Source: Verrucomicrobiota bacterium
GTDB lineage: Bacteria > Verrucomicrobiota > Verrucomicrobiia > Chthoniobacterales > JAFAMB01
Direction of reading: 5' to 3'
NCBI GenBank assembly: GCA_019239825.1
Contig: JAFAZK010000280.1
Coordinates: 12,563 to 76,562, forward strand
DNA length: 64,000 nt
Shown: positions 40,111 through 57,353 of the stretch, in pieces
Numbering within the stretch: position 1 is the first letter of the stretch
How the letters are laid out: each line of letters opens with the position of its first letter
Program-made: the position numbers and the translations under genes
Notes under the pieces: model-generated
Database searches by the model: none
Told to the model about the DNA's origin: nothing
What the model saw: the letters and a program-made list of their open reading frames with translations, nothing else

Positions 40111-43100
40111 CTACACCTCAAACGCCAGGATACGCGGAAGCTCGCCGGGATACGCAAAACATAGCAGCGAATATCCGATCCCGGAGATTCCGCGAAACAG
40201 GCTCGGTGAGAAGCAGAAGTTTTCGCCCACACTCTGTTGAAGACGAAAGAACGCTCCTCGCAGACCGCGTTCGAGAGTTTGCTCGATAAGATTCGCGGCA
40301 CTAGCCTGGAACTCAGGCCGGTTCTCCCGGCTGGCGATATAACTCAGGACCTCGGCAATGCCGAAGTTTCCGCAGCACCAGTGGTCCATGCTGCCTCGCT
40401 GGCGGATCTTTTCAACGACGATATCCAGCTCGTCGCGGGAAAGCTTTTGCGGTGTCTCCACGCCGACCGTGGCTAAAAGAATGCCGGCGGCGCCGTTGCA
40501 CCAGTTATTGAGAGAACCTTGCGGTCCTCTTACTGCGATTGGCCAAGAACTGTTTTTCGGGTCAAAAAAACCTCTCATCAGTTTCAAGGCTCGCTCAACG
40601 AGTTCGTTGAACTGTGGATCACAGAAAGTGCGGCTGTATTCGGTCAAGGCAAAACTGATGCCCGCTAAGCCGTGAGCAAAACCGACATAGGAATCGCCGT
40701 TAGACCTGGTCCAGCCGAGCTCGGGATGGTAACGAGCCGCCAGCATCCGAGCTGCAGCGAGCGCGTTGCCGGCCGCACCGGCGTCTTTTGTGACCTGATA
40801 AAGTCGTGTAAGCGCGACTAACAATCCGGCCACACCCGAGATTATGTCAGGCTCATCCGTTTCAGGCCTTAATTTGACTCTTTTATTCAGCGCTAGAGCC
40901 AGTGCAGTCCAATCACTGTCCTTGGTTAGCCTTCCCAGAACCAAAGCGCCGTAAATCAGAGCCCCGACTCCATTGCAGATACCGGGAGGATAGTCAGCAG
41001 GCGGCTCGAAGACAGCCAGCCTTTCCATGAATCTCGATCCCGGGCGTTTCGGGAAAGCGGATCCTGTTAACTGGTCAACCGCCGCTAGAAAAATGAGCGG
41101 CCCCATATCTCCCAGATAGATCCCTTCGCGGTGAGCAGCGCTGAGATCGCGCGGAAGAAAACTCGGCGGATCCCATAGATACGGGCCATCTGATTTACTG
41201 ATTCGCTGAGTTAATTCGTTAGCAAACTGCTGGACGACTGTTTCGGCCTGCGCGCCGGTTAACGGCTTTTCGATGGTCGCTGGAAAACGTCTGAGGGATT
41301 CCTGGATCACCTCCGTCTGAAAGCGGAAATCGTCTGCTCCCATGGCAGCGATTCGTTCGAAAACGATATCGATCGGTTTCTTTCGAGCCGCGCTGGGCAG
41401 ATGAAAGTTTCGACCAAGTAATTCCGTGCTGTTCAGCCGAATATGGAACCTCGGTATATCCAAGCCGAGCAATGACTGAACCTCGAAATCGATCAGCGTC
41501 TTGGTTTCTGGGGTTAGAGCGTTGTCTCGCAACGGGACACGATAAAGCTGCTCAAAAACGATGCTTTGGCGCACGCCAGAGGTCAGACATTTGGGAGCAC
41601 GTGCTTGCTTCAGCAGGAAACCATAAAGGGTCGTCGGACGGTAAACGAACCTGGTCTTACTTTGGGCAAATTGTTCGATTAACCGGCTAAACTCGGTTTT
41701 CCGATCTGATACGAAATGATAGAGCCGGCCAAAGCCCGTTATGAGTTCGGCTTGGTAACGCCGCACATCCTGGATCTCATTGCCCAAACGGACAGTGTTG
41801 CCGGCATGCCTGGGTGATCGCGGCTTGGTGACTGGCCGCATCTGGTCGGAGTTGAGATTTTCCCAGTCAGTCACGTTTGTGTGTGTTAGGTCCACAAAAC
41901 CGCTGCCCAGGCCGCAATAATCTGCCGGTACATGGGAGGCGCTTAATTGCCAGAAGGGCAACAAACCGGTCTCGATCACTGATGGGTTTCCTAGTTCCAA
42001 GACGTGCGCAGCGCCAGGTGTCGAATCGAACTTCGCGCTTCCACGTCCAGGGTGAAAAAATGATTCCGTGTCGATAGGAACCGGGCGATCGCCGGCAGCG
42101 ATCACATTTTCGAATCCCAGATCACATCCATTCAGCAGATAAGCCAGACAGAGGAGTTCGCCACCGCCCCGGTAATAATGCCGGACATCTTGGGCGTTTT
42201 GACAGGGAGATTGTTCGATAAATTCTTCCCAGCCATATTCCTCACGCTTGATTACTCGCGCCAGGCGCCAAGCCGCGGTGAATCCGACCCCGGCAAGCCA
42301 CCGATCAACTCGAACAAGCGCTTCAGCAATGGAAAGGTCTTTAGGCTTGTATAGCACCTGCTTGCCGTCGTCGAAAATGAGCAAGATCACTTGCTTACCT
42401 CCATCGTGCCGATCCGATATGCCCGTTTTTGTCCGTACTAGTTTTGGCCAGCGATTCTCTGACTGACCCAACGCGATCACTTCAGAAAAGTCAGTTCGGA
42501 GACGCTCCAGGAATAGGTTAGTGGAGTTAGTCCAGGATGTGAGTAAATGGCTGATCTGGCGGGCTAAAACCGGGAATCGTTCAAATAAGATCCGGTACTC
42601 GCTTTGGCGGACGCTTTGGATAAAGGTCTCGAAACTGCCGCCATTCTGCTGATGTTGAGAGAATTGCGCGAAGCTCGGGAAAGAAGCAAGTTCGGAGATT
42701 TCTTGGAGAAGCGAAAGCAGCAAAGAATCGATCGCCGATGCCGTCACGGCGTCGGGTGACAGCGATAAGTTCTGACGAGCGAAAGCGATCAGGGGTAGCC
42801 AGAGAACTGAAAATGGAAATGCTTGGCTCCCCTCCAAATCAACGGGGGGATACTGAAGAGCTTGGTTGAGAACTTCTTCCCATCGATCCCTTTGGGTCAC
42901 CGGTTCTGGCGGCTCGGAGGTGACATAAACGGCCTGCTCTTCGGAAACACCAAGCGATCTCAGGCGAGCAGAAAATCGGTCATAAGTGCCCGTCGTGAAT
43001 ACCTGTTTCCAATCGCGGAAATCGTCTCCGGGTTCCGGAGTTGCCTGGGGTTCGGTAGGCGCTGCGGCTAACCGCTCGTGAAGATAGTGAGCTTGGGCAG

Positions 43101-43125
43101 AGAGGGCAGCTAATGATTTAGACAT
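40111..43125 (-). CDS. lanM: Class II lanthipeptide synthetase
   Basis: Dehydratase motifs DRHDGG, YKPK, GWEEFI, DLGFEN, IDTE, RPTTLY; LanC-like motifs DIISG, GFAHG, WCNG, WCCG, LFRG. Confidence 0.93.
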   Translation of the reverse strand: MSKSLAALSAQAHYLHERLAAAPTEPQATPEPGDDFRDWKQVFTTGTYDRFSARLRSLGVSEEQAVYVTSEPPEPVTQRDRWEEVLNQALQYPPVDLEGSQAFPFSVLWLPLIAFARQNLSLSPDAVTASAIDSLLLSLLQEISELASFPSFAQFSQHQQNGGSFETFIQSVRQSEYRILFERFPVLARQISHLLTSWTNSTNLFLERLRTDFSEVIALGQSENRWPKLVRTKTGISDRHDGGKQVILLIFDDGKQVLYKPKDLSIAEALVRVDRWLAGVGFTAAWRLARVIKREEYGWEEFIEQSPCQNAQDVRHYYRGGGELLCLAYLLNGCDLGFENVIAAGDRPVPIDTESFFHPGRGSAKFDSTPGAAHVLELGNPSVIETGLLPFWQLSASHVPADYCGLGSGFVDLTHTNVTDWENLNSDQMRPVTKPRSPRHAGNTVRLGNEIQDVRRYQAELITGFGRLYHFVSDRKTEFSRLIEQFAQSKTRFVYRPTTLYGFLLKQARAPKCLTSGVRQSIVFEQLYRVPLRDNALTPETKTLIDFEVQSLLGLDIPRFHIRLNSTELLGRNFHLPSAARKKPIDIVFERIAAMGADDFRFQTEVIQESLRRFPATIEKPLTGAQAETVVQQFANELTQRISKSDGPYLWDPPSFLPRDLSAAHREGIYLGDMGPLIFLAAVDQLTGSAFPKRPGSRFMERLAVFEPPADYPPGICNGVGALIYGALVLGRLTKDSDWTALALALNKRVKLRPETDEPDIISGVAGLLVALTRLYQVTKDAGAAGNALAAARMLAARYHPELGWTRSNGDSYVGFAHGLAGISFALTEYSRTFCDPQFNELVERALKLMRGFFDPKNSSWPIAVRGPQGSLNNWCNGAAGILLATVGVETPQKLSRDELDIVVEKIRQRGSMDHWCCGNFGIAEVLSYIASRENRPEFQASAANLIEQTLERGLRGAFFRLQQSVGENFCFSPSLFRGISGIGYSLLCFAYPGELPRILAFEV

Positions 43126-43129
43126 AAAT

Positions 43130-43155
43130 AGCCGCCATCGGAACCGATGGCGGCT
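43130..43155 (-). terminator. GC-rich hairpin between precursor genes and lanM
   Basis: agccgccatcgg-aa-ccgatggcggct followed on the minus strand by ATTT and the lanM ATG. Confidence 0.65.
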
Positions 43156-43198
43156 TCAAAAATGCTTCGTCCTAGCAAATAAGTGCTATCGGCGCGGC

Positions 43199-43333
43199 TT
43201 AGGCGATGTTGACCGTGCTCAACACGTTGGAGCAGCTGACGCTCTGAATAGAGGTGGTATCGTTGATGCCGCCGGCAACGTCTTCGAGTTGTTCGTCGCT
43301 AATGGATTCTGGTTTGTTGGTTTCTTCGCTCAT
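43199..43333 (-). CDS. Double-glycine RiPP precursor A3 (44 aa)
   Basis: Hand translation MSEETNKPESISDEQLEDVAGG/INDTTSIQSVSCSNVLSTVNIA. Confidence 0.92.
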   Translation of the reverse strand: MSEETNKPESISDEQLEDVAGGINDTTSIQSVSCSNVLSTVNIA

Positions 43334-43399
43334 ATTATCCGTAGGTTTATGGTTCTCGTTTGTTAAGTCGGAATTGGCCGGCTTTTCTCTGGCGCGGCT

Positions 43400-43534
43400 T
43401 TAGGCGATGTTGATCGTGCTCAACACGTTGGAGCAGCTAACGCTCTGAATAGAGGTGGTATCATTGATGCCGCCGGCAACGTCTTCGAGTTGTTCGTCGC
43501 TGACCTGTTCTGGTTTGTTGGTTTCTTCGCTCAT
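43400..43534 (-). CDS. Double-glycine RiPP precursor A2 (44 aa)
   Basis: Hand translation MSEETNKPEQVSDEQLEDVAGG/INDTTSIQSVSCSNVLSTINIA. Confidence 0.92.
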   Translation of the reverse strand: MSEETNKPEQVSDEQLEDVAGGINDTTSIQSVSCSNVLSTINIA

Positions 43535-43603
43535 ATTAAATCGGTTTGTCCGGTTTTGGGTTTCTTTTAGGATCGGAGTTCGCCCATTCTTCCTGTGCCA
43601 GAC

Positions 43604-43738
43604 TTAGGCGATGTTGACCGTGCTCAACACGTTGGAACAGCTAACGCTCTGAATAGAGGTGGTATCGTTGATGCCGCCGGCTACATCCTCGAGTTGCTCA
43701 TCACTGATCGATTCTGGTTTGTTGGTATCTTCGCTCAT
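43604..43738 (-). CDS. Double-glycine RiPP precursor A1 (44 aa)
   Basis: Hand translation MSEDTNKPESISDEQLEDVAGG/INDTTSIQSVSCSNVLSTVNIA. Confidence 0.92.
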   Translation of the reverse strand: MSEDTNKPESISDEQLEDVAGGINDTTSIQSVSCSNVLSTVNIA

Positions 43739-43800
43739 ATGGTTGGGTGTACGGTTGGTTTGGTTTCTGGTTGTGGTTCTCGAATGCCGCGCTCGAGAGT

Positions 43801-44115
43801 TTAGAGGCTGGAATCCGGGCCTAAGAACGTGTTGTTCTCAGCGCTTAAGAATCCGCCCGCTATTGTTTCAAGCTCGGCGTCCGAAAGGTTTGCATTCTGG
43901 TCCGGGAAATCCTTTGGCAAGACGATGTACATCAGATCGTCTGTCTCTTGCAGGAGTACTACCTTCAGCCGATCCGGTAATGTGGTGCCTAGTGCTCGCT
44001 CGACGGCGAACTTTGGGTTCGCTAGCAAGGATTCCCGAAACGCCTCATCTTTCAAGGCCGCCCTTACGAGTACCTCTTTGACGTCTTTTCGTGAGATATT
44101 CGAGTTGGAATCCAT
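43801..44115 (-). CDS. NHLP (nitrile hydratase-like leader) family precursor
   Basis: RAALKDEAFRESLLANPK...VLP...LSDAELETIAGG then a 16-aa core FLSAENNTFLGPDSSL. Confidence 0.9.
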   Translation of the reverse strand: MDSNSNISRKDVKEVLVRAALKDEAFRESLLANPKFAVERALGTTLPDRLKVVLLQETDDLMYIVLPKDFPDQNANLSDAELETIAGGFLSAENNTFLGPDSSL

Positions 44116-44172
44116 TTCTACTCTTTGTCTCCGGTGTGCCCGACATCCACTTCCGTGTCCGCCGAGCTATTT

Positions 44173-44188
44173 AGCAATGGGTGTGCCA
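44173..44188 (-). promoter_or_regulatory. Sigma54 (-24/-12) promoter for the precursor-lanM operon
   Basis: Minus strand TGGCACACCCATTGCT matches TGGCAC-N5-TTGCW, 57 nt upstream of the NHLP ATG. Confidence 0.85.
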
Positions 44189-44271
44189 TAACTACGTCTG
44201 TTGATTCAAGTATCTGGGATATGGTCAGTTGCATACATTTAGCCATTTTAGCTTCCTGACTGAACAACCCA

Positions 44272-44316
44272 AAAATGGAACTCCGATTCTCGAAAATGGA
44301 ACGACAGCTCCATTTT
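44272..44316. promoter_or_regulatory. Candidate bEBP upstream activator sequence
   Basis: AAAATGGA-N8-TCCATTTT palindrome (44293-44316) plus a direct AAAATGGAAC repeat 21 bp away (44272). Confidence 0.55.
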
Positions 44317-44335
44317 AGGTTCGCGGTCCGCTGTT

Positions 44336-45499
44336 TCACTCCTCTGGCTTCAGGCGATGGTGCCGCAGAAAATCCATGAACTTTTGATAGTGTTCCGGCC
44401 TGATATTGAGTAGGACACTCATCCGGCGATAACTGCCTCTGGCTGCTAACAGTCCCTGGGAGATTATCTCGCGGACCTGAGCTCGATTTAAGTCGCGGTC
44501 GAGAAAAGGCTCATGAACGACGTCCCAAAACGACCTCCCCTGCTCGACCATATCCTCGAATAGTTCATTCTTGCCGGTGCCCGGACCAGGTAAACTTGCT
44601 TGGCGAAGCTCGCTGACAAAATGATCTGGCTCTATGTACTTTGATTCCGCCATGGAGAAGCCGATCGTGACGATGCTCCGGAGCTCCCGAACATTGCCCG
44701 GCCAGGGGTATCGCTCTAGAAACTTGATCGATGTAGGCGAGAATGCCTTCTTGAGGTTGTATTCCTGATTCAGCTTATCGACAAAATAACTAATTAATAG
44801 TTTCCAATCCTCATCGCGTTCCCGCAAAGCTGGGATATCCAAGGGAAAATAGCGGAGGCGGAAATAAAGATCTTGGCGAAAATGACCGGTGGCGATCATA
44901 TCGCGCAGCGGTCTGTTAGTGGCTGCTATTACCCGAACATCCACCGAATAGGTTTTGGTCGAGCCCAACGGTTTAACTTCCTTTTCCGCGAGTGCTCGCA
45001 GCAACATGGTCTGAGCAGTGGGAGGAAGATCACCGACTTCATCCAGGAAAACGGCGCCTCTGTCCGCCGCATCAAATAGACCTTTATGATCAGCGATGGC
45101 GCCGGTAAAGCTGCCTTTAACGTGCCCGAATAGTTCGCTAACGGTTACGTTGCCTTCGCTGTATTGTGGGCAATTGACCACCACAAAAGGCTCGCTAATG
45201 CGCGAGCTCATCAGATGGCAGGCTTTAGCAAATAACTCTTTGCCTACACCACTCTCGCCTGTGATCAGGATGGTTTGATTGAATTTGGCGAACTTTTGAA
45301 CTTTGTCTAAAGTGTCTCGCATTTTCGAACTGACACCGACTAGATCAACCGCTTGCTTTATTCCCCATTTCTCTAGGGACTTGACGCGGACCTGGAAGGC
45401 CACATCCGTCATGGTTTTGTCAGTTTCGCGGCTAACTTTCGTAGACGGAAACGGAACCACGTTAGCGGTACTATCGCTCTCCATAAATGCAAGACACAC
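44336..45499 (-). CDS. Sigma54-dependent activator (bEBP) without a recognisable sensor domain
   Basis: [45 protein letters not shown]; only about 50 aa precede the AAA+ domain. Confidence 0.9.
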   Translation of the reverse strand: MCLAFMESDSTANVVPFPSTKVSRETDKTMTDVAFQVRVKSLEKWGIKQAVDLVGVSSKMRDTLDKVQKFAKFNQTILITGESGVGKELFAKACHLMSSRISEPFVVVNCPQYSEGNVTVSELFGHVKGSFTGAIADHKGLFDAADRGAVFLDEVGDLPPTAQTMLLRALAEKEVKPLGSTKTYSVDVRVIAATNRPLRDMIATGHFRQDLYFRLRYFPLDIPALRERDEDWKLLISYFVDKLNQEYNLKKAFSPTSIKFLERYPWPGNVRELRSIVTIGFSMAESKYIEPDHFVSELRQASLPGPGTGKNELFEDMVEQGRSFWDVVHEPFLDRDLNRAQVREIISQGLLAARGSYRRMSVLLNIRPEHYQKFMDFLRHHRLKPEE

Positions 45500-45579
45500 G
45501 AGGCCGGGAACCGCCCTTATCCTCTACCTACTCTGGACCATACCAACTGTTTTTCCGCAAGATGCGCGTAGGGTCCTGT

Positions 45580-45646
45580 CCCATAAATAGCATGGCTTTT
45601 GCCGGCGGCCTATTCTGATCGCGACGAAAGCCATGTTATTTATGGG
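45580..45646. repeat. Intergenic long hairpin
   Basis: cccataaatagcatggcttt...aaagccatgttatttatggg (20-bp arms, one mismatch). Confidence 0.7.
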
Positions 45647-45666
45647 TAGTACCCTAAGTTACAGAA

Positions 45667-48618
45667 TCAGGCTAGTTGTCGTCTGGCGAGGTCGGCGAAT
45701 GGTCCCGCCTGATTCATCAACTCAGTGTAAGTCCCGGTCTGTGCGAGTTCACCATTTTGCAGCACGAATATTCGATCCGCATTGATGATCGTGCTCAACC
45801 GGTGCGCGATGACGATTCGGGTCGCCTGCATCGCGTCCAAACTTTCCGTGACTTTTCTTTGGGTTTCATTGTCCATGGCGCTGGTCGCTTCGTCAAAAAA
45901 GACAATGCGGGGCCGGTTTACCAGCGCTCGGGCAACCATTAGCCTCTGGCGCTGCCCCCCGGAAAAGGTGCCGCCTCCCTCCGAGACCACGGTGTGCATG
46001 CCCATGGGCATATTCTTGATGTCCCGGTCTAGACCAGCCATTCTCGCTGCTTCCCAAGCGTCGTTCACGCTTAGGTTGGTATGTGAACCGATAATGTTCC
46101 GATAAATGTCGGTGGGCATCAGCCGGCTGGATTGCAGGACAACGCCGATCTGCTGGCGAACTTCGCGGATATCCAAAGAAGACATTTCCTGGCCGTCGTA
46201 AAAAATTGCGCCTGATTCGGGTTTTTCGAAGCCAAGGAATAACCGCAAGAGCGTCGACTTGCCCGAACCTGATCCTCCAACTAGAGCCACGAACTCGCCA
46301 GGCCTGATGCGCAGCGAGATATCTTTCAAAATCAATGGTGCATCCTGGTTGTATCGGAACGAAAGGTGGTAAACCTCCAACTCACCGCTCAACTCGCCGG
46401 GGTGGGCTTTTGCCTCATCGATTTCGGGTTGGGCTTCGATAACGGGCCGAAGCCGCTGGAACAAAGGTAAGATCATTAAAAGATCCAACACGACCGTACT
46501 CAGTGACAACATGCTTGAGAGGACGTTGGTAAATACTCCGTTAAACGCCACGAATTGGCCGGTGGTCATGTTGAATTTCTCTTGTCCCTGCGCAGCCTGA
46601 TCCTTGAACCAGCCATATAAAAGGAATAGCAGAGCCGTCGCGATCACGGGATAAACCCGGCTGAAAACTTGAACGATATTCCCGAGAAATTCGACTCGGA
46701 AGGCCAGCCTTTTCTGAGTCGAGAACTTCCTGGTCCATTCCCGGAACGCAGAATCTTCGGCGCCGGACACTCGGATTTTCGCAACCCCGTTTATCAGCTG
46801 CAGAACCAAGCCTGTAATTAATCCTCGGATGCGGAACATCTGCCGCTGGTTCGTCAGCTGCATCAAGTTGATGCAGAGCGGTAAGATCACGGAGAAACCG
46901 ATAAGACCGAACGCCGCCCAGGCCATCTTGGCGTTGAACGTAAAAAGGAAGATGCCGGTTATCAATGTGCTGATAGCACCGACGATGGCTTGAGTACCGG
47001 ATTGAGAAATAGCCTGCCGAATCTGTTCGACTCCCAATGCCCGGTCTGTGAGGTCACCTGAGGTATAGTCGCGAAAGAATTGAGATGGCAGGTTGAGTAG
47101 ACGGTCCCAGACGCCTGCTTGTACGGAATAATCCATTTTGCCGGTCAGGCGGAGGACGGCGATCGAACGAGTTAGTTCGAAAGCGAATGTGCCTAAGGCG
47201 GCCGCGAAAAGCCCAACGGCAAATTGAGCCAGTTGACTGCGATCGGCAGCGGGAATAACGCTGTCGATGATCTGACCGCTGAAGTACGGCGTTACCATTC
47301 CCAAAAACCCAACTAACACTCCCATCAGGCTGATGGTGCGCAGATCGGCGTGACAAGTCCGCATGCCGAATTTAATCAGGTCCCAAGCACCAAGCCGCCT
47401 TTCCGGTAGAGGCGTATATAAAGAAACGGCGAAGGGCGACAGAGTGGCAGCGCTTGAAGCAGTAACCACAACGCGTTCCACCGTGCGTGGGTCCGCTAAC
47501 TCATACGTCGTGTGTCCGGTTTTCAAAATCGCGACTGGCTCGAGGGTGCCCTCGCGAAACGCTAGCAATGGGCCATGATCGACTTCCCACCACTCGCCTC
47601 GGAGCGCTATGGTGCGGTACCGGAACCGGGAAGCCTTTGCGATCGCTGCGAGTTTATCGCTGACTTGAAAAAGATCGGCTGGGACCTTGACCTGAATGCC
47701 GGATGCCTCTCCTACGAGCCGGCAAGCGATGACCAGGGGATTGCCGGAAGGGTCGGCGAGCAGGCCGGCCGTCTGGAGTTCGCGACGAGTCGCCAGCACG
47801 GAGGCGATTTCGCGCAGAGCGGTATCGCGCGACCGCAAACCGGACGCCTCTCGCGCACGCAAGCGATTAAAATCATCAACAATTCTGAGCTTCTTATTGA
47901 TGAACTCGCATTGGCACAACACCTCGTGGAATAGCCCAAGGCCGATCCAGAAAGTAGGTTGGGTGATGCTGGCAGGAGAGGAAAAACATGACAGCAGGTT
48001 ATCGTCATAAGATTCGATCCATGTGTCCGAAGACAGAGGAAGGATAGGAACCCCTTCACCGGATAAAGAGACTCCTTCCATACCCATGTAAAGCGCTTCT
48101 CCGCGCAGGACCTGTATCCACACGATCCCGCGGCGCGCTCGAGCGATCTTGCCGCGAGGCAGTAACACTTGCTTACCGCCGACGAGAACCTCATCCGCTT
48201 TTGGTAGTGGCCTCGTATCGCGCGAGACACTGGCAGAAAGCTGTTCGAGCCAGTGATCGATGAGTTGGCTGAGAGTAGCAGCGTATTCGTGATCGCGTGC
48301 CAGCCGTCTCAGATCATCTTGACGCAGCCCGACCAGCTCCGAGCCTTCGCGACCGGTGAGCAAAAAACAGTAACCGTGCGCTTGCTTGTTAAAGTCCATC
48401 CCGAAAATCAAGGAACCTGGCTCCAGCGAAAGGAAGTGTGACCGCGGGCCGGTAGCTTCGCCGGCTTCGAGCTGCACGGTGAAAATTTCAATCCGGCCCG
48501 TGGCGATAAACCAGACGTTCTCAGATCCTTCAACGACGAAAGATTGGTTCAACCGGAGGACCTGTAGTTCACCGGATTGAATGAGAGCGTTACTAAGAGC
48601 TGCTGAAATGGCCGGCAT
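45667..48618 (-). CDS. NHLP/NHLM-type ABC transporter, permease/ATPase (no active peptidase)
   Basis: Long N-terminal region, TM domain, GGSGSGKST, FSGGQRQR, DEATS. Confidence 0.9.
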   Translation of the reverse strand: MPAISAALSNALIQSGELQVLRLNQSFVVEGSENVWFIATGRIEIFTVQLEAGEATGPRSHFLSLEPGSLIFGMDFNKQAHGYCFLLTGREGSELVGLRQDDLRRLARDHEYAATLSQLIDHWLEQLSASVSRDTRPLPKADEVLVGGKQVLLPRGKIARARRGIVWIQVLRGEALYMGMEGVSLSGEGVPILPLSSDTWIESYDDNLLSCFSSPASITQPTFWIGLGLFHEVLCQCEFINKKLRIVDDFNRLRAREASGLRSRDTALREIASVLATRRELQTAGLLADPSGNPLVIACRLVGEASGIQVKVPADLFQVSDKLAAIAKASRFRYRTIALRGEWWEVDHGPLLAFREGTLEPVAILKTGHTTYELADPRTVERVVVTASSAATLSPFAVSLYTPLPERRLGAWDLIKFGMRTCHADLRTISLMGVLVGFLGMVTPYFSGQIIDSVIPAADRSQLAQFAVGLFAAALGTFAFELTRSIAVLRLTGKMDYSVQAGVWDRLLNLPSQFFRDYTSGDLTDRALGVEQIRQAISQSGTQAIVGAISTLITGIFLFTFNAKMAWAAFGLIGFSVILPLCINLMQLTNQRQMFRIRGLITGLVLQLINGVAKIRVSGAEDSAFREWTRKFSTQKRLAFRVEFLGNIVQVFSRVYPVIATALLFLLYGWFKDQAAQGQEKFNMTTGQFVAFNGVFTNVLSSMLSLSTVVLDLLMILPLFQRLRPVIEAQPEIDEAKAHPGELSGELEVYHLSFRYNQDAPLILKDISLRIRPGEFVALVGGSGSGKSTLLRLFLGFEKPESGAIFYDGQEMSSLDIREVRQQIGVVLQSSRLMPTDIYRNIIGSHTNLSVNDAWEAARMAGLDRDIKNMPMGMHTVVSEGGGTFSGGQRQRLMVARALVNRPRIVFFDEATSAMDNETQRKVTESLDAMQATRIVIAHRLSTIINADRIFVLQNGELAQTGTYTELMNQAGPFADLARRQLA

Positions 48619-48735
48619 AAGACTGGACCTATCAGCGGTCCACTCTACGGCAGCGGAATATTCCGGCTACGCCGGACCATTCCGCTGCACTGGCGGAAGA
48701 TGTTGTTAATAGTATCTCGTTCATTCTTTCAGATA

Positions 48736-48824: not shown

Positions 48825-51008
48825 CTAGTGGCTTATCAATTTCGAGTACGGTCCTCCTGCGTTTTTCATCGATTCATGAGTTCCTCGTTCCGCCACTTTC
48901 CCGTATTCCAAGACGATGATTTCGTCGCAGTCCCGGATACTACTCAGCCGATGCGCCACAATTAAACAAGAGCAACCGCGACGCCGCAGATTTTGATCGA
49001 TCTGTTCCTCGGTGCTCGGATCCAAAGCGCTGGTGGCCTCGTCCAGGATCAACAAACTCGGCGAGTTGACCAACGAACGCGCAATCTCCAGGCGTTGACG
49101 TTGTCCCCCCGAAAAGTTAACCCCACCTTCAGAGACTTGGCTGGACAGACCGCCTTGACGGGAAGCGACTACATCGGCGATGGCTGCATCCTTGCAGGCT
49201 TGTGTGATGTGCAAATCTGGTATCCCGGTGTCCCACATGGTAAGGTTGTCTCGAACCGTGCCTTCGAACATAAAAATATCCTGATCGACCATCGCGATCG
49301 AATTATGCAAAAGGCGTGGCGGGATTTTGTCTCGAGGGACACCGTCCAAGAGTATCTCTCCGCTCCAGGGCTTAAAAAGCCCGGCAACAATCTTGGAAAC
49401 CGTAGACTTACCACTCCCACTTCCACCAACTAGCGCTACCCGATGCCCTGGCCGAATACTGAAGCTGAGGTCCGCAATCAGCGGCGGCGCCAGCGGATTG
49501 AAACCGAAGGTCAGATTGCGCACATCGAGCTGACCGCTGAGCTTAATCGTCGCGTCAAACCGCGGGTCGACTGACTGTTCTTGGAGATACGCCGAGTCTA
49601 TTTCGTAGCGCAGAACATCATCCAAACGATTCAAATCGGAACCGGTCTCTTGTAACACGTTACCAAAGGTTACAAAAGAGGTAATCGGCTTGGTAAATCC
49701 GTCCATCAGCGACTGGAAAGCAACCAGCAAACCGATAGTTAGATGCCCGTCCATGACCCGCCAGCCGCCTAACCCGAGGATCGTGGCAGTGATCAGGGCC
49801 TTGGTAAACGGCGGAACGGCGGAGAGACTTTGACCATAAAAATCCATCTCTTGTTCGGCCTGAATGGTCTTGGCTTGATAGCCTCCCCAACGGGCAAAAA
49901 ACTCGTTCTCGCCGCCTGTCGCTTTGAGAGTTTCGATCATCTGCACGCCGTTCATCGAAGTACCCATTAGTTTTCCGCGCTCTTGCAGAAGCCGGAAACT
50001 CGCGTCAACTCTCGGGCGTTGAACCAGTTTGACGCCGAGGAGGTTGAGCATGGCCAAAGAGACGCACGCCAGGGTGAGCCAGACATCGTATTGAAACATT
50101 ACCAGGGCGAAAAACAGGAGCGCCATCAGGTCAAGAGCCGTGGTTACCATTTTGTCGGACAGCACCTTGGCCACTTTGTCATTGATCAGCACCCGCGAAC
50201 CGATCTCACCCGCATAACGCTGGGAGAAAAACTCCATCGGCAGCCGGATAACATGGGTAAAAAATTTAGCGGATGTGGTTAATGCCAGCTTGGTCTCCAG
50301 TCGCAAAAGGAAGTGCCTCTGCAAGGCGACAAGGAAGAGCATGAAAAGAATCGAGACCCCCATGGTCGAAAGCAGGGGACGCAAAATGTCAGTTTTATCG
50401 CCGATGAGAAATTCATCGATAAAAACGCGCGTGAACGAAGGGTTAACAATGTTGGGGATGATCAGCAGCAGCCCCGTCAACAACGCGTAACTCAACCCGA
50501 TCTCGAAACCAGAAACCCGCCGGCGCAATGCTGCTGCGAGACTCGGCTTTTCTCCGCCCGGAGTAAAACTCGGACCTGGCTGAATAGTTAGGACAACGCC
50601 GGTGAAAGAAGCCTCGAGCTCTTCGAGCGCAACTCTGCGCGGTCCAGTCGCAGGATCATTAAGATAAACCTTACCCTCGGCGACCCCTTCATATACCAAA
50701 AAATGATTGAAATTCCAATAGAGGATCACCGGCGGCTTCATCTTCAGCAGAGCCTCTAGCTCGCAGCGGATACCCTGACTCACCATCCCGTACCGGCGGG
50801 CCGCTTTGAGTAGATTACTCGCCTTACTACCATCCCGGCCGACACCGCATTCCAGTCGGAGTTGTTCCAGCGGAATCCAGAGATTGTGATAGCGAAAAAT
50901 GACGCCCAGGGCGGCTGCTCCGCATTCCACCGCCTCCATCTGCAACAAGGTTGGGGTGATCACTCGATCCGGAAGCCGCTCTTCCGCTGGCAGACTGGGT
51001 ACGCTCAT
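48825..51008 (-). CDS. NHLP/NHLM-type ABC transporter with C39 peptidase
   Basis: QMEAVECGAA (Cys), WNFNHF (His), LNDPA (Asp); TM domain; GGSGSGKST. Confidence 0.93.
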   Translation of the reverse strand: MSVPSLPAEERLPDRVITPTLLQMEAVECGAAALGVIFRYHNLWIPLEQLRLECGVGRDGSKASNLLKAARRYGMVSQGIRCELEALLKMKPPVILYWNFNHFLVYEGVAEGKVYLNDPATGPRRVALEELEASFTGVVLTIQPGPSFTPGGEKPSLAAALRRRVSGFEIGLSYALLTGLLLIIPNIVNPSFTRVFIDEFLIGDKTDILRPLLSTMGVSILFMLFLVALQRHFLLRLETKLALTTSAKFFTHVIRLPMEFFSQRYAGEIGSRVLINDKVAKVLSDKMVTTALDLMALLFFALVMFQYDVWLTLACVSLAMLNLLGVKLVQRPRVDASFRLLQERGKLMGTSMNGVQMIETLKATGGENEFFARWGGYQAKTIQAEQEMDFYGQSLSAVPPFTKALITATILGLGGWRVMDGHLTIGLLVAFQSLMDGFTKPITSFVTFGNVLQETGSDLNRLDDVLRYEIDSAYLQEQSVDPRFDATIKLSGQLDVRNLTFGFNPLAPPLIADLSFSIRPGHRVALVGGSGSGKSTVSKIVAGLFKPWSGEILLDGVPRDKIPPRLLHNSIAMVDQDIFMFEGTVRDNLTMWDTGIPDLHITQACKDAAIADVVASRQGGLSSQVSEGGVNFSGGQRQRLEIARSLVNSPSLLILDEATSALDPSTEEQIDQNLRRRGCSCLIVAHRLSSIRDCDEIIVLEYGKVAERGTHESMKNAGGPYSKLISH

Positions 51009-52324
51009 TAATTCTTGATTCCCAGGATCTCTTTGATTTTTGGAATGACGAACTCGACCGGGGGCTTACGCTCAACCACGATGGATGCTTGGGCTAACGT
51101 GCCGCTGAAAATACCCGTAGGCGGGCCCTGTGACGAAGACCATTTGTAGCCGCTCTTGGTTGTCGGATCAGGATACAGTTCGGCGGTTACTTCAATGGGC
51201 GCACCTTTTGACGTGAGGTCCTTAACTAGTTCGTCGTTTCGCAAAACGACTTTCATCCCGTCCGGCGTACTTGGAAAATAGGAGACACTCGAAACCTTTC
51301 CCAGGATGAAACCGTACTCCTCCGCTTTCACCGTCGAAGGCGAAATCTGGATCTCCTGACCCGTTATTACCTTTTTGCCTTGTCCGGCCGGCACGTAGAT
51401 CACCGCCTCCATCTTGGCGTCTTCCGCCTCCACCGTAATGATCCTGTCCTTGGAGCTGACGGGAGATCCTCTTTCCACTAACTTTTCAATGACCCGGCCG
51501 CTGTAGCGGCAGATGACCTTAGTGCCGGCGTCTTTCTCTTCCCGGAGTTGGTTCAAGTCCAGGGCGCTTTGATTAATTTCTTTGAGACGCGCGTTTCGCT
51601 GGGTTTGAGTTTCCCGGACCAGTTTAATCTCGCTGGTCCGGATCTCGCTCATCTTTACTTGGGTATCGGCCGCTTGTAATTGCACCGCATAAAGAGCGTC
51701 TCTGGCTTTGTTGACCGAAGCCTGAGTAGTCAACCCTTTCTGGAGAAGGTTTGATTGGTTGTCGAATTCGGTTTGGTCAGCGTCAATTTGCACTTTATAA
51801 CTCTTTTGGGCCGCCTCCATCGCCTTCTCTTCCTTCTCGTAGTCGGTAATCGCAGCGTTATCGCTTTTGGTTTCACGGGCGGTCATATCGGCATCTTGCG
51901 CCTGCAAAAGTTTGAGCTGCGCTTCCTGGGTCCTGATCTTTAACTCCAATTCTGACTGGCTCATCGTAGCCACGATCTGGCCGGTCGTAACTTCGTCACC
52001 AGGTTTGACCAGGACTTGGGTAACAAACCCGTCATTAGCGGCAGCCACGTCGTAGACAGCGCCTCCCCGAATCAGAATTCCACTTCCGCTAACCGTGTCC
52101 GGAATTCGCCCCAGAAAACCCCAGAGCAGGATCAGAAACAGGATTAGACCTAAGGCCGAGACCGCCAGCCAGCCGGCCGGCGAGGTAATCGACATTAAGT
52201 AATCAAGTTGCTCGGGGGAGGAGAGGCGCTCCAAAGCGGCTCTCCGAAAGATGCTCCGTTCGGTGGCGCCGTTGCTACTGGTGCCATGGTGGCCGGCCTG
52301 AGATGTATTTGATGTTTGGCTCAT
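51008..52324 (-). CDS. NHLM-type HlyD family secretion protein
   Basis: IFRRAALERLSSPEQLD, EEYGFILG, YKWSSSQGP; TAATG coupling to the transporter. Confidence 0.92.
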   Translation of the reverse strand: MSQTSNTSQAGHHGTSSNGATERSIFRRAALERLSSPEQLDYLMSITSPAGWLAVSALGLILFLILLWGFLGRIPDTVSGSGILIRGGAVYDVAAANDGFVTQVLVKPGDEVTTGQIVATMSQSELELKIRTQEAQLKLLQAQDADMTARETKSDNAAITDYEKEEKAMEAAQKSYKVQIDADQTEFDNQSNLLQKGLTTQASVNKARDALYAVQLQAADTQVKMSEIRTSEIKLVRETQTQRNARLKEINQSALDLNQLREEKDAGTKVICRYSGRVIEKLVERGSPVSSKDRIITVEAEDAKMEAVIYVPAGQGKKVITGQEIQISPSTVKAEEYGFILGKVSSVSYFPSTPDGMKVVLRNDELVKDLTSKGAPIEVTAELYPDPTTKSGYKWSSSQGPPTGIFSGTLAQASIVVERKPPVEFVIPKIKEILGIKN

Positions 52325-54317
52325 AGTTCCGGTCCTTCAAAACGGGGCCCACCGGTTCTCTCACATCTGGAACTGTCTCGAAAGCTTGCTCGGTTATATT
52401 CGCTTGTTCGACTGCTTTCGGAAATCCGGGGACCCGCAGCGCGGTCTCTTGCGACAGCAGGGTCGCAGTTTCATATCTCAAGTCGACAATAGCGTTGGCC
52501 AGAGCTAAGCGAAAATCGACCAACTGAGTTTCCGCGGTCGTCAGTTGCTCTTCCGACTGGATAGTCTCGAACATGGTGGTTGCACCTCGGCGAAACTTTT
52601 CCCGCATGTCGTTAAAGGACTTTCTGAACGCAATCACCGCATCATGCTGAGTCTCGACGTCCGAACCCAGTTCTTGAATGGTGTCCGCACTCGCGGTCAC
52701 GCTTGCGGCGATTGTAGTAGAAAGATCCTCCATCTGAATGATAGCTTGGTTCAGGTCGGATTGGGCCAGCACTACACCCCCCTTGGAACTGTTGTTGGCA
52801 AACGGCCAAGCTAACTGCGCTCCAAGCGATAAATCCAAACCGAGCTTGGTGCCTCGCTGGCTCTGGCCACTTGAGCTCGTTATCTTTTCGTTGTTGATGT
52901 CAGTCCCGATTCCGGTGGTTAGACTCGGGTATATAATGAGATCTTCCTTCGCTTTGGCTAAGCTCACCTGTTTTGACCTGATTGTCTGCAAGGCAGCAGC
53001 TCGATCGAGCCTCCGAGCCAGAGCCTCATCCACCAAAGCATCGGTGTTCAAGATTCTCGGCTGATGCTCGCTGACATCGGGGAAAGATTGAAATGCGAGC
53101 GGCAACCGGTGCAGTTGATCAGTTCTCAGACCGATGGTGATCGCCAGTTTCTTGGCAGCATCATAAACGGAAACTAATGCCTGTGTCCGTTGCGCGAATG
53201 ACTGCGAACGACGGCCCTCGGCCAGCGTGACTTCACTGTAAGGAACTCCGCCTCCCTCCGCCATCTGCTTAGATAAATCCTCAAGAATAGAGTCAACCCG
53301 ATAGGCGCGATCTTGCAGCGCAAATTTCTGCAAAGCGGATACCATTCCCCAGTACGCCTGGGCCGTGTCTGAGGCCGTCTTCTGAGCCTGGTTCCGTAAC
53401 GTTAGTAACCTGCCTTCGTAATCGATGCGTGCCTCAATCTCTTCTGCGTCGTTGTACAGGACGCCAGCTTTCTTGAAGACCGGGATGTTAGCGGTCATCA
53501 CAATTCGGTTCGTAGTCGGAGGGTATTTGTTGTTACCGGCCTGATCCACCCAGATCGGTTGATACAAAATAGACATGTCAATCCCGTTTCGAAATTTTTT
53601 GCTCAGTGAAACTTCCGTATCGATCGAGTCCGTCGCCTTTAGTTCCTGGCTCTGAACCGCTTGGGTAATTGCGCTGTTGATAGTCGAACTGCTGGCCGGG
53701 ATGCCAACGGAACGAAAGATGGAGGGCAGCGCCGAGCTTAGCACTTGCTGATTCGCGTCCAGAGAGGTATTGCTGGCTTCCGCTGGAATCGAGTGGGCGT
53801 ATTTAGCAATTAATAGTGCCGTAGTGTCGAAGTCGCCTACCTTTTGTTGAAGTTTGCCTTTCGCCGATTGCGAGTCTTCGGAAGATAGTCGCAAGTCTTT
53901 GTTTTGAACGAGTGCGATTCTCACTGCGTCGAGCAACGAAAGAGAGAACAGACCTGGCGGCGTGAGTTCAGTTAATGAGAGCGCGGATTCGAATTTCTGA
54001 TCAAACTCCTCTGCCTGCTGTTGCGTGATTCCGCCGACTACCTCACCTGTTCCGCCTGGACCGGTCGGGCTCGGCGATGGTAGTTGCCCAGGTGGGATCA
54101 ACGGCTTTATCTCATTGCGGTTACCTCCATGCTGCGGAAGTTCAATGGGTGCGCTTGAGGTTGGTGTGGGCGACGGTATCGCCGGTGGAACTGCCGGCGT
54201 AGTTTGAGCTTGCCCGGCAACTAAGAGGGTTGTTTCAAAGCCGATCAAACCGGCAATGCTTAACAAACTGAAGCGCAAAACATCCAACTTCGTCCTGCGA
54301 TAATGAAGAGATTCCAT
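52275..54317 (-). CDS. TolC-family outer membrane efflux protein
   Basis: LSLLDAVRIALVQN, two OEP-like repeats, first gene of the export operon. Confidence 0.82.
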   Translation of the reverse strand: MESLHYRRTKLDVLRFSLLSIAGLIGFETTLLVAGQAQTTPAVPPAIPSPTPTSSAPIELPQHGGNRNEIKPLIPPGQLPSPSPTGPGGTGEVVGGITQQQAEEFDQKFESALSLTELTPPGLFSLSLLDAVRIALVQNKDLRLSSEDSQSAKGKLQQKVGDFDTTALLIAKYAHSIPAEASNTSLDANQQVLSSALPSIFRSVGIPASSSTINSAITQAVQSQELKATDSIDTEVSLSKKFRNGIDMSILYQPIWVDQAGNNKYPPTTNRIVMTANIPVFKKAGVLYNDAEEIEARIDYEGRLLTLRNQAQKTASDTAQAYWGMVSALQKFALQDRAYRVDSILEDLSKQMAEGGGVPYSEVTLAEGRRSQSFAQRTQALVSVYDAAKKLAITIGLRTDQLHRLPLAFQSFPDVSEHQPRILNTDALVDEALARRLDRAAALQTIRSKQVSLAKAKEDLIIYPSLTTGIGTDINNEKITSSSGQSQRGTKLGLDLSLGAQLAWPFANNSSKGGVVLAQSDLNQAIIQMEDLSTTIAASVTASADTIQELGSDVETQHDAVIAFRKSFNDMREKFRRGATTMFETIQSEEQLTTAETQLVDFRLALANAIVDLRYETATLLSQETALRVPGFPKAVEQANITEQAFETVPDVREPVGPVLKDRNYEPNIKYISGRPPWHQ

Positions 54318-54452: not shown

Positions 54453-55217
54453 ATGGAAGTTGCGGTTGAAATCGTTGAGGGCAAACCAGTTCTGGTGTTT
54501 TCCCGGCGTCTTGATGATGAAGCCGCCGGACGATTCAGTCGAGAATTAGGCCTTTGGGTTGAACGGTTACTCACAAAAGGAATGTCCGATTTAGCGATCG
54601 AATTTTCCGGGGTCTCATATATTACCAGCGCGATACTCCGGTCGCTCTTGTCGATGGCTAAGCGAGTGCGAGCAAGGGGTGGGACCCTTTGTATCCTGAA
54701 CCCCAGCGCTGAAATCCAAGAAACATTTGGAGTCATTGGCTTTCGGGAGATCTTTGAATCTTATGGCGGCAAATTCAGGCTGAGCCTTCCGGCGGTCCCG
54801 CTACCACAGCGTACCCCGGCCGAGACTGCCCAACTTGATATTATTGTCGGCAATCGCGTGTTCGCTTGCGCCGACGGTGATACTCTTGGAACTGAAGGAT
54901 CGTTAGGGCCTGAGTTGTTTTCGGACTTGCCTGGCGTCGCCGCCCGACCCGTCCGCTTCCAAAACGCCGGCAGTCACTGGGTGGCGCTTGTGGGGGCCAA
55001 CCCCGGATCTATTGTTCGCGTCGATAGTCAAGTGGTGGCTCCGGGCCAAGAAGCTATTCTTAAAGACGACCACGTTCTTCAGATCGGTGAGGTGAGAGTC
55101 CGCGTTCACGTGACCTTACCCGAAGGCACCAGCCGTGAAGGCGAATCGATTAATGTCCAAGTCCAAGGCGTGTTCTCCCAAACCGCAGAATGGATCGACA
55201 AGGCGTTGAAGGAGTGA
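54453..55217 (+). CDS. STAS (anti-sigma antagonist) plus degenerate FHA-like domain protein
   Basis: SGVSYITSAILRSLL...K...GG.L STAS motif; C-terminal beta-rich region ending in LQIG. Confidence 0.7.
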   Translation: MEVAVEIVEGKPVLVFSRRLDDEAAGRFSRELGLWVERLLTKGMSDLAIEFSGVSYITSAILRSLLSMAKRVRARGGTLCILNPSAEIQETFGVIGFREIFESYGGKFRLSLPAVPLPQRTPAETAQLDIIVGNRVFACADGDTLGTEGSLGPELFSDLPGVAARPVRFQNAGSHWVALVGANPGSIVRVDSQVVAPGQEAILKDDHVLQIGEVRVRVHVTLPEGTSREGESINVQVQGVFSQTAEWIDKALKE

Positions 55218-55253
55218 GGGCCGCGGAAATGACAAAATGACAGATGACAAATG

Positions 55254-55579
55254 GAGGCGTGACTCGCTCAGCGCTCCTGGAGGGGAGCCGCTTTTGACCG
55301 TCCTGAGTCAAAAAACCGTCTCTGAAAGATTACGTTTGCCGATAGTCAGCGCGTGTTGGCAGGCGGCTCCCGCGAACGTTTCCTGATGCCCGCCACGACC
55401 TGCAGCGTCTCCGTTAGCTCAATGATCCAAATTTTCCGAGCAACCACACGCGGAGACGTTTGCGGGAGCCGCCCGCTAACACACGTTTGGTGAAACCACG
55501 ATTTTAAGCATGATGCCGCCAGCGGTCTGCCGCAGTCAAAAGCGGCCCCCCTCCAGGAGCGCTGAGCGAGTCACGCCTC
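55254..55579. repeat. Nested-palindrome element family A, copy 5
   Basis: About 45-bp terminal IR with one mismatch (GAGGCGTGACTCGCTCAGCGCTCCTGGAGGGG...). Confidence 0.9.
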
Positions 55580-55787
55580 AATCAGCCATCTGCTATCTGT
55601 AATTTCCCGGGCTCCGGCGCCTCCGCTATTAATATAGAGCCGTTGGCCACAGCATGGTGGCCGCTCGAATAACTCTGCTTTGCTGTCAATGCAATTTGCA
55701 CGAGATTGTGGCGTTTCGATTGCGATATTACGCATCTTGAAGCAATGCGATTTCGTTAATGCTCTGAAGATAAGGCACTTACAACTT

Positions 55788-55803
55788 AGGCTCAAAAATT
55801 GCT
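55788..55803 (+). promoter_or_regulatory. Possible sigma54 promoter of the response regulator
   Basis: AGGCTCAAAAATTGCT has GG-N10-GC spacing and a good -12 TTGCT; the -24 half is imperfect. Confidence 0.5.
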
Positions 55804-55830
55804 AAAACGATGATCGCAAAGCCGGATTTC

Positions 55831-57165
55831 ATGAGAGCGCTGATAATTGATGATGAAAAAGCAATCCGGAGTTCAACCGTCATTGCTATCCGAGCTGAGG
55901 GACATGTTGCCGAAGGTGCTGACAGTAAAGCGGTTGGTCTCCTGAAATTGCAGGAGGACGCTTACGATCTCGTCTTTCTCGACCTTCGCCTTGGAGATGA
56001 AGACGGTCTCGAAGTTCTGGAAGACATCAAACGAACATTTCCGCAAGTCCAGGTCGTGGTCTTTACTGCTTACGCATCAGTGGCTTCTGCAGTAACCGCG
56101 ATGCAGAAGGGAGCCTTTGATTACCTGGAGAAGCCTTTTACTCCGGAGAACCTCCGTCAAATCTTGGGCCGGGTCGAAAAACAGCGGAAGCTTGAAACCA
56201 AGATCGTCGAGTTGCAGCGCGAGATCGATCGCCAGAATCCGAGCGTCGATTTTTCTTCGGAAGACCCGGCCATGAAATCGGCGATAGAAATTTTGTTCAA
56301 AGCTGCGCCAACCCAAGCGGCCATCCTTTTGTTGGGGGAGAGCGGTACGGGCAAGAGTGTTTTGGCAAGGGCCATTCATGACCGGAGCGAAGCGAGAGAC
56401 GCGCCTTTTGTTACCGTAAGTTGCCCTAGCCTGTCTCGCGAGTTGCTCGAGAGCGAACTATTTGGGCATGTGAAAGGCGCTTTTACGGGCGCGATCAGAG
56501 ATACCTGGGGCAAGGTCGCGGCTGCGGAGGGTGGAACCTTGTTCCTCGACGAAATTGGCGAACTGCCCCTTGAGATCCAGCCGAAACTACTGCGTTTACT
56601 CCAAGAGCGGCAGTACGAGCGGGTCGGTGAACACAAGATCCGGGTTACCAATGCCAGGGTCATAGCGGCGACCAATAACGACCTAAAAGAACGAGTGCGG
56701 GTCGGGAGTTTCCGCGAAGATCTTTACTATCGGCTCGACGTGATCTCGGTTCGGATCCCGCCTCTGCGGGAGCGACTGCATGACTTAGACCGGATCACTA
56801 AATCGTATCTCGAATTCTTTTCTCGCCAGCTAGGGCGGCCCCGCTTGGCGTTTAGTGATGGCGCGTTAAAGAGACTCAACAGTTATCGGTGGCCTGGTAA
56901 TCTTCGAGAACTGAGAAACACGATTGAACGAGGGGTAATCCTATCGCCGGACGACTTTCTCAGTGAAAGGTTTATACCAGAAAATCCCCCAGCGCCTCTC
57001 GACGCCAGGATTTCAATCGGGAGCGATGTCAGTCTGGAAGCTTTGGAGGAGGCTCATATCCGTAGCATTTTGGGACGGGCATCCAGCTTGGATGCGGCGG
57101 CGAAGACCCTGGGGATAGACCCGGCGACCCTGTACCGGAAACGGAAGCGGCTCAATCTGCAGTGA
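55831..57165 (+). CDS. Sigma54-dependent response regulator (NtrC family, AlgB-like)
   Basis: Receiver (IIDDE, FLD, KP), [14 protein letters not shown], Fis [14 protein letters not shown]. Confidence 0.92.
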
Positions 57166-57353
57166 CGCAGGCTGTTGGCCCTTAGAGAGACGTCGATGTC
57201 TTCTAAGCGCTTGACTTGAAGGGACTTCGGTATCCTCATGATGGATGCTTTTGAATATAAAGCTGGCAATACAATTTTGCGGTGCAGCCGCAAAATTGCA
57301 TCACAGCCTGGATTGTTGAGGGATCGTTGACGATTCTTCAACAATCCAGGCTT

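Follow-up and report, generated by a model that had tools for sequence, protein, structure and literature searches.

A 64,000-nucleotide stretch from the Verrucomicrobiota (Chthoniobacterales) assembly GCA_019239825.1, referred to here as the window (contig JAFAZK010000280.1, positions 12,563 to 76,562 of the forward strand), contains a class II lanthipeptide cluster with a lone NHLP precursor gene, the subject of this study. The encoded protein consists of a folded-type NHLP leader that ends in a double glycine (GG) and of a short tail free of Cys, and it is followed by three short-leader precursors with one Cys each and by the synthetase LanM. This arrangement is conserved in a family of Chthoniobacterales clusters, it is derived, and both parts of the NHLP protein are kept by selection. 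We tentatively favour, at less than even confidence, the explanation that the gene codes for a functional, GG-cleaved, exported linear peptide precursor, the NHLP domain of which engages the N-terminal domain of the exporter subunit ABC2. A separate exported peptide is the simplest reading of the gene.

The Cys-free NHLP precursor and its family

The gene, its promoter element and its nearest neighbours are the following.

43801-44115, minus strand: NHLP precursor gene, a 104-residue open reading frame without Cys in the whole protein
43852..44115, minus strand: NHLP leader, residues 1-88, ending in GG (TIGR03793 match)
43801..43851, minus strand: 16-residue Cys-free tail FLSAENNTFLGPDSSL plus stop codon (translation of the reading frame)
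44174..44188, minus strand: sigma-54 -24/-12 element TGGCACACCCATTGC, an exact TGGCAC-N5-TTGC, 58 nt before the NHLP ATG
43604..43738, minus strand: short GG-leader lanthipeptide precursor 1, 44 residues, one Cys
43400..43534, minus strand: short precursor 2, 44 residues, one Cys
43199..43333, minus strand: short precursor 3, 44 residues, one Cys
40111..43125, minus strand: class II synthetase LanM, 1004 residues, WCCG motif in the cyclase domain (TIGR03897, E 1.1e-171; DUF4135 and LANC_like)

The NHLP protein matched TIGR03793 above its cut-off (70.9 against 50.9 bits, E 5.9e-20, residues 9-88), and the profile of its relatives matched the solved NHLP leaders 9cjx (E 1.2e-7) and 8tb1 (E 1.6e-5). 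Three helices, a beta-hairpin and then a flexible C-terminal segment are predicted for the leader in a low-confidence model consistent with the family (AF2 secondary structure H9-22, H24-32, H34-42, E53-57, E62-65, H79-89; mean pLDDT only 54.7). The match to NHase_alpha is weak, and the Cys residues for metal binding are absent. The leader ends in LSDAELETIAGG, where I at -4, L at -7 and L at -12 precede the GG; hydrophobic residues at these three positions are named as C39 determinants in the accessible part of PMC12537861. Since the tail contains four Ser/Thr and zero Cys, it lacks the combination of Cys and Ser/Thr on which a class II LanA core depends. The earlier note on this DNA had described an 88-residue NHLP leader with a 16-residue tail unable to form a lanthionine, and this was borne out by the translation and the TIGR03793 match; it was equally right that the Cys-bearing precursors lack the NHLP fold, as none of the three matches TIGR03793. 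Each of these has a 22-residue leader ending in ISDEQLEDVAGG or VSDEQLEDVAGG and a 22-residue core with a single Cys. The NHLP gene is present in a single copy in its own genome. Radical SAM, YcaO and methyltransferase families, the partner enzymes by which a proteusin would be recognized, were not found in a scan of 19 proteins in the vicinity of the gene, which did not extend to the remainder of the genome.

The position of the gene behind a sigma-54 promoter, also proposed earlier, could be confirmed: the element listed above is the only exact TGGCAC-N5-TTGC match within the window, and a sigma-54 element lies 57-76 nt 5' of the NHLP ATG in 49 of the 55 loci examined, with two further loci having too little upstream DNA.

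A protein search gave 60 relatives among 64 candidates, and those with a named source are labelled Chthoniobacterales or Verrucomicrobia. The alignment was restricted to 41 of the 60, leaving out near-duplicates, and 39 of these 41 carry the leader-end motif. The tail is Cys-free in 37 of the 39 motif-bearing relatives and in 42 of 43 complete metagenome tails, and the leader ends in GG in 36 of the 39 (GS, EG and AG occur once each). Among 11 genome loci, all nine with downstream DNA have the order NHLP, one to four short precursors, LanM (L003 has three further short precursors 5' of NHLP), and the remaining two stop at most about 115 bp from the NHLP gene. Short precursors were found beside NHLP in 43 of 45 metagenome loci, 42 of them by tblastn and L042 from its open reading frames; the two non-cases are L041, a disrupted copy without GG, and L057, which stops within the NHLP gene. 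Across the Chthoniobacterales loci there are one to five short precursors per NHLP gene, each with a GG leader and a single Cys, and a CCG-type LanM is encoded downstream in all loci whose DNA extends that far. A search centred on LanM led to the same picture from the other side, as NHLP was present in nine of nine family loci with upstream DNA. It can be stated that the lone Cys-free NHLP protein is a family trait and not a degenerate one-off. The earlier note had considered that this copy might simply be degenerate, and that idea is contradicted by the tail counts and by the constraint on the tail reported below.

One locus, L072, was considered as a case of LanM without NHLP and was rejected, since it is a decayed cluster with activator and NHLP fragments. 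In its region L072:5300-8813 the activator is reduced to 35 residues and NHLP to 42, LanM is spread over three frames, and the assembly may contain long-read errors.

The Cys-bearing exception is L040 (also P0043 and P0044), with a 23-residue tail that has one Cys. The core of the short precursor after this NHLP gene opens with nearly the same ten residues as the tail, and the DNA similarity between L040 and its relative L042 ends exactly after the shared first five core codons. This pattern in L040:1574-2066 fits a gene conversion from a short precursor into the NHLP gene.

Outside the family, nine NHLP-like reading frames flank LanM in Cylindrospermum sp. FACHB-282 (L091, 3619-11611), and several of their tails are without Cys and rich in aromatic residues and Lys.

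Derived origin and purifying selection

The origin of the arrangement could be traced through outgroup clusters. Acidobacteriota, Vicinamibacterales, a Betaproteobacterium and a second Chthoniobacterales genome encode LanM proteins 25-30% identical to that of the window, with NHLP precursors encoded immediately upstream of them, and single-Cys cores are fused to the NHLP leader in L076, L080, L082, L083, L087, L089, L092, L096 and L100. These fused cores resemble the cores of the short precursors of the window in their first residues and at the C-terminal end, and several tails in the family of the window share opening residues with them. The Chthoniobacterales locus L092 has the matching gene order ABC1-ABC2-activator-NHLP-LanM with a fused core. 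Thus the unsplit relatives are like the window in their NHLP leader, CCG-type LanM and single-Cys cores, but unlike it they carry the core on the NHLP leader itself, and a motif scan of ten NHLP-fused outgroup loci detected no short-leader reading frames. Since the outgroups carry a homologous single-Cys core on an NHLP leader, the arrangement of the window is, on the comparison of these loci, a derived split, in which the cores have moved to short leaders and the old precursor has lost its Cys.

In order to compare the constraint on the parts of the protein, omega was calculated (Nei-Gojobori, Jukes-Cantor) from independent pairs, nine in clade A, with 16-residue tails, and seven in clade B, with 17-residue tails. 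For leader residues 1-66 the values were 0.06 (0.04-0.09) in clade A and 0.19 (0.10-0.33) in clade B, for leader residues 67-88 they were 0.10 and 0.07, and for the tail 0.30 (0.19-0.46) and 0.17 (0.06-0.37), respectively. In none of 1000 bootstraps did omega reach 1 in any of the three parts in either clade, and the all-pairs proportions concur. Leader and tail are therefore both under purifying selection, and neither is a relic. A comparison of leader and tail conservation in related clusters had been suggested by the earlier note, and its outcome is that both are constrained. As for the split of the precursor set which that note had proposed, it stands as history, with fused cores in the outgroups and an NHLP domain kept under selection; the specific role in trans on LanM is not supported, as the NHLP type is uncoupled from the LanM type and the complex score is weak (see below).

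In one sub-clade the tail is FLNPQANVLNIQDP[L/I], with no Ser, Thr or Cys, therefore the function of the tail cannot depend on LanM chemistry everywhere. Regarding cleavage, LahT150 cuts substrates that retain just the last 13-14 leader residues, according to the accessible part of PMC6363468. By this precedent the folded NHLP domain is not required for cleavage, and the short precursors of the same operon agree.

Candidate partners of the NHLP domain

The exporter subunit discussed in this section has two entries.

45667..48618, minus strand: ABC2, NHLP export ABC subunit without peptidase domain, 983 residues (TIGR03797)
48109..48618, minus strand: ABC2 residues 1-170, first cyclic-nucleotide-binding (CNB)-like barrel, the variable part, co-inherited with the NHLP type

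A sliding-window comparison revealed that the cluster is a mosaic. The window resembles L006 (81-95% nucleotide identity) from TolC to ABC1, in the ABC2 body, and in the short precursors and LanM, and it resembles L002 (78-93%) at 49000-48100, i.e. the end of ABC1 and ABC2 residues 1 to about 170, and at 45700-43800, which covers the activator and NHLP. The same breakpoints were found between L028 and L004: the identity is 76-97% (mostly 84-97%) in ABC2 from about residue 150, in the short precursors and in LanM, and the ABC2 start, the activator and NHLP are diverged. These patterns suggest one history for ABC2 residues 1 to about 170, the activator and NHLP, and another for the ABC2 body, the short precursors and LanM.

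Pairwise correlations over all loci are confounded by relatedness and were replaced by Mantel tests within a clade. In clade A the NHLP leader was correlated with ABC2 residues 1-170 (n=9, r 0.83, p 0.0008) and hardly with the ABC2 body (n=9, r 0.20, p 0.09), and LanM was correlated with the ABC2 body (n=8, r 0.93, p 0.0002). In the strict test, with near-duplicates removed (n=7) and all 5040 permutations used, the correlation of NHLP with the ABC2 N-domain was maintained (r 0.85, p 0.025), also when it was made partial on the ABC2 body (r 0.85, p 0.027) or on the activator (r 0.77, p 0.029); for LanM and the ABC2 body r was 0.91 (p 0.0004). Shared activator sites were considered as the cause of the co-inheritance and rejected, since the NHLP and ABC2 upstream regions have no 8-mer in common and no sigma-54-like element precedes ABC2.

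The model of ABC2 residues 1-300 predicts two CNB-like beta-barrels and a long helix (pLDDT 79), the first barrel being the variable part. Foldseek related this N-terminus to the tandem cyclic-nucleotide-binding domains of the PKA regulatory subunit and to CAP (E 5e-8, probability 1.0, TM 0.2-0.3), and no Pfam family was detected in residues 1-300, even at E up to 5. An action of the NHLP domain on the exporter, one of the two targets that the earlier note had named, thereby gains some support through the co-inheritance with the ABC2 N-terminal domain.

As a separate observation, the ABC2 body (starting near residue 170) is co-inherited with the LanM type and with the type of the short precursors (window 40111-48100 compared with L004, L006, L028 and L036; r 0.91-0.93), and the membrane part of the pump may be matched to its cargo.

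The favoured course of events is the following. The NHLP gene is a descendant of the original NHLP-leader lanthipeptide precursor of the cluster; the ring-forming cores have moved onto tandem short double-glycine leaders, and one NHLP copy, having lost its Cys, has been retained. It would be made together with the short precursors from its own sigma-54 promoter, 5' of the hairpin before LanM. The C39 domain of ABC1 would cut after the GG, and the 15-17-residue tail would be exported in linear form, without lanthionine, in some clades not even being dehydratable. The folded NHLP domain would be kept for docking, with the CNB-like N-terminal domain of ABC2 as a more likely partner than LanM, and this docking would carry out either its own tail only or would also license the export of the short-leader peptides.

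Several points weigh against this explanation. Cleavage, export, docking to ABC2 and any activity of the tail are steps that we infer. Some two or three recombination events and three NHLP types underlie the co-inheritance, and five of the seven loci are of a single type; because of this it is a lead and not a proof. Part of the signal is due to physical linkage of NHLP to the activator, the two being correlated with an r of 0.58. Genome G005 has the genes of the exporter and of the two-component system on a different contig from that of NHLP, the short precursors and LanM, therefore NHLP belongs by position with the precursors. The clade D tails, of 10-12 residues, are mutually unlike, with EG for GG in one copy, thus the export of a defined peptide is not universal. 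Furthermore, the complex prediction of LanM(1-650) with NHLP gave an ipSAE of 0.52 (runs 0.48, 0.52 and 0.52) where the best control gave 0.00, a verdict of weak support for binding to LanM, with a partner pLDDT of at least 60 and a contact agreement of at least 49%. The mark for such scores was reached by 116 of 157 solved complexes and by 2 of 215 mismatched pairs, and passes at 0.60 or less account for only 18 of the 157 complexes and for both mismatches. The predicted contact may merely reflect likeness to known leader-LanM pairs.

An alternative that we regard as possible, though doubtful, is that the NHLP protein is a free-standing adaptor, present once per operon, which would act in trans on the CNB-like domain of ABC2 and/or on LanM, so that the precursors with 22-residue leaders are processed and exported; its own tail would then be a by-product or a second signal.

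It is unlikely in our judgement that the NHLP protein serves as a licence of the exporter, i.e. that it must occupy the CNB-like N-domain of ABC2 before ABC1/ABC2 moves cargo and that one substrate is kept in order to open the pump. The co-inheritance with the ABC2 N-domain and the CNB-like fold speak for it, as does clade D, which keeps the domain despite arbitrary tails; NHLP/Nif11 families also co-occur with the three-gene transporter across genomes, as described in the accessible part of PMC2887384. Leader binding by the ABC2 N-domain is nevertheless an assumption, the independent events are few, Pfam is blank over the domain, and the selection on the tails in clades A and B needs a second explanation.

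That the free or uncleaved NHLP domain binds LanM as a leader in trans, and switches on dehydration and cyclisation of the short-leader precursors, appears rather improbable. For DprM it is reported, in the accessible part of PMC12537861, that C-terminal-only leaders (delta 1-65, delta 1-74) are not substrates and that the folded NHLP domain docks on the dehydratase, and the short leaders of the window correspond to such truncations. One NHLP copy was seen per intact cluster, its folded domain is the most constrained part, and the retention of the domain in clade D counts for this role as well, together with the complex prediction given above. However, there is no coupling of the NHLP type to the LanM type (r 0.07, p 0.26, n=8; r -0.03, n=7): a near-identical NHLP protein (94% leader identity, identical tail) is paired with LanM proteins only 54% identical, and a LanM 82% identical to that of the window is paired with an NHLP protein of 78% leader and 33% tail identity. 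Where DprM has its docking loop, all nine family LanM proteins have a loop of 12 residues, the shortest of 58 measured, and the 49 others have 13-52; since it has 16-18 residues in the NHLP-fused outgroups L080, L082, L087 and L089, and was placed without aligning the DprM sequence, the loop length is no more than suggestive. The short leaders resemble complete class II leaders, and the selection on the tail would be left unexplained. In LanM residues 1-180 no Pfam family was detected, even at E up to 5. The activation of LanM in trans, as the earlier note had proposed it, is therefore not supported by the type comparison, and the predicted binding is weak.

The next alternative involves genes that diverge from the TolC end of the cluster.

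54453..59189, plus strand: divergent STAS protein, NtrC-type regulator and HAMP/PAS histidine kinase
55810-57165, plus strand: NtrC-type response regulator
57282-59189, plus strand: HAMP/PAS histidine kinase, likely start about 24 codons in

The listed GTG start of the kinase (57282-57353) is probably too far 5', as orthologues show stops there and the conservation starts at a Met about 24 codons in. It is quite unlikely that the 16-residue tail is an induction factor, sensed by this kinase and the NtrC-type regulator, which would fire the sigma-54 promoter as in three-component bacteriocin regulation. The size of the tail and the absence of modification match GG-type pheromones, and the promoter in front of the NHLP gene is in accordance with the idea. 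Synteny of the regulator and the kinase with the transporter side of the cluster holds for five whole genomes (the window, G001, G002, G003 and G005), the regulator also flanks the cluster in L007, L008, L010 and L043, with the kinase start next in L043, and two membrane helices of the kinase enclose a sensor region of about 150 residues. However, the window and G002 share 98% identity in this sensor (residues 30-215) and only 33% in the tails, and in the other three genomes the sensor has diverged in parallel with the remainder of the kinase (93%, 88% and 63%). A pheromone, moreover, requires no folded leader of 88 residues. The sensor does not change with the tail, and this argues against the pheromone role suggested earlier.

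The lost Cys, the disrupted copy L041, the decayed cluster L072 and the irregular clade D tails might suggest a functionless, decaying relic of the old precursor, but this is close to refuted by omega values that stay well under 1 in each of the three parts in either clade and by the near-universal single-copy presence with a conserved promoter of its own, and we give it very little credence.

Cluster surroundings and known systems

The order of the cluster on the minus strand is TolC-like, HlyD, ABC1, ABC2, sigma-54 activator, NHLP, three short precursors, LanM and GNAT. The features that are not listed above are these.

52275..54317, minus strand: TolC-like outer membrane factor (profile matches)
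51008..52324, minus strand: HlyD-type adaptor (TIGR03794)
48825..51008, minus strand: ABC1 with N-terminal C39 peptidase domain (TIGR03796)
44336..45499, minus strand: sigma-54 activator, 387 residues, no receiver domain, AAA+ from about residue 54 (profile matches)
44243..44318, minus strand: repeats AAAATGGA / TCCATTTT, one palindrome and two more half-sites
43130..43155, minus strand: hairpin (stem of 11 bp) in the gap from short precursor 3 to LanM
39424-39879, minus strand: GNAT acetyltransferase, 151 residues, 3' of LanM

The matches to TIGR03794, TIGR03796 and TIGR03797 are all above their cut-offs, and the genes are at most 8 kb from the NHLP gene. The sigma-54 activator adjoins NHLP in clades A and C and is absent from that spot in clade B; the repeats are probable binding sites of the activator, and the hairpin is terminator- or attenuator-like in appearance. 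The ABC1-ABC2 spacer (48619-48824) contains two long perfect palindromes with stems of about 20 and 16 bp and has no sigma-54-like element, and the ABC2-activator spacer (45500-45666) contains a long imperfect inverted repeat. In L003, L017-L023 and L025 there are two to four extra short precursors 5' of NHLP, where NHLP keeps its own sigma-54 element, and these clusters probably have two precursor promoters.

Two soil RNA libraries from different studies contain contigs at least 99% like the window over 43672-43974 and 43672-43853. Covered in this way are the 3' half of NHLP, the intervening spacer and the beginning of the following precursor, after which the contigs continue into an L002-type core. 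Such contigs are no measure of expression level or transcript ends and no proof of a single transcript, and DNA can occur in libraries of this kind.

In clade A loci the GNAT gene comes after LanM (59-84% identity), L004 having two copies, and it was not seen there in clades B and C. As a modifier of the tail it is unlikely, since the clade A tails and short cores are without Lys and clades B and C are without the gene at that place. Past GNAT, two secreted-looking DUF3060 repeat proteins are encoded on the plus strand at 37560-38264 and 38944-39321.

One of the nearest likenesses among known systems is DprE6 of the dpr cluster (Desulfotomaculum sp., accessible part of PMC12537861), which also has an NHLP leader, GG, a Cys-free core and a class II LanM nearby, and which is left unmodified by DprM. 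DprE6 is, however, one of seven NHLP precursors, the Cys-bearing ones being NHLP proteins too, and DprM rejects truncated leaders, whereas in the window the Cys-bearing precursors are on 22-residue leaders and the NHLP copy is the sole one. The NHLP/Nif11 systems (Haft 2010, PMC2887384) have the same leader family, GG motif and TIGR03794/TIGR03796/TIGR03797 exporter; the accessible part of that paper reports that just over 60% of the LanM-adjacent NHLP proteins carry Cys and fewer than 40% are without it, and it contains no fixed pairing of a Cys-free NHLP with short leaders and no role for the N-terminal domain of the exporter. Cyanobacterial LanM clusters, with double-glycine precursors of NHLP (16), Nif11 (29) and other (15) types (Wang 2011, PMC3140520, Table 2), are alike in their mixed precursor types, but this source, in its accessible part, gives counts only and no conserved one-to-many arrangement, selection analysis or function. 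A natural trans-acting or stand-alone leader domain, or a fixed family of one NHLP with short precursors, was not found described in the openly accessible literature. It should be mentioned that leaders supplied in trans in the laboratory can act on lanthipeptide enzymes without being joined to the core, all of these being engineered cases.

NHLP and Nif11 leaders are long, folded and costly, and the reason for them, as well as for their co-occurrence with the three-gene exporter, is unsettled. The family presented here is a natural experiment on this question: the ring-forming cores have shed the folded domain, yet exactly one copy, itself lacking a ring-forming core, stays under strong selection in each intact cluster seen. 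If the protein does act as a free-standing adaptor, it would be the first natural trans-acting leader domain, and it would provide a ligand for the unexplained N-terminal domain of TIGR03797 proteins. The identity of its partner would reveal the purpose of the folded leader and whether NHLP-type enzymes and pumps take short-leader substrates, which matters for lanthipeptide engineering.

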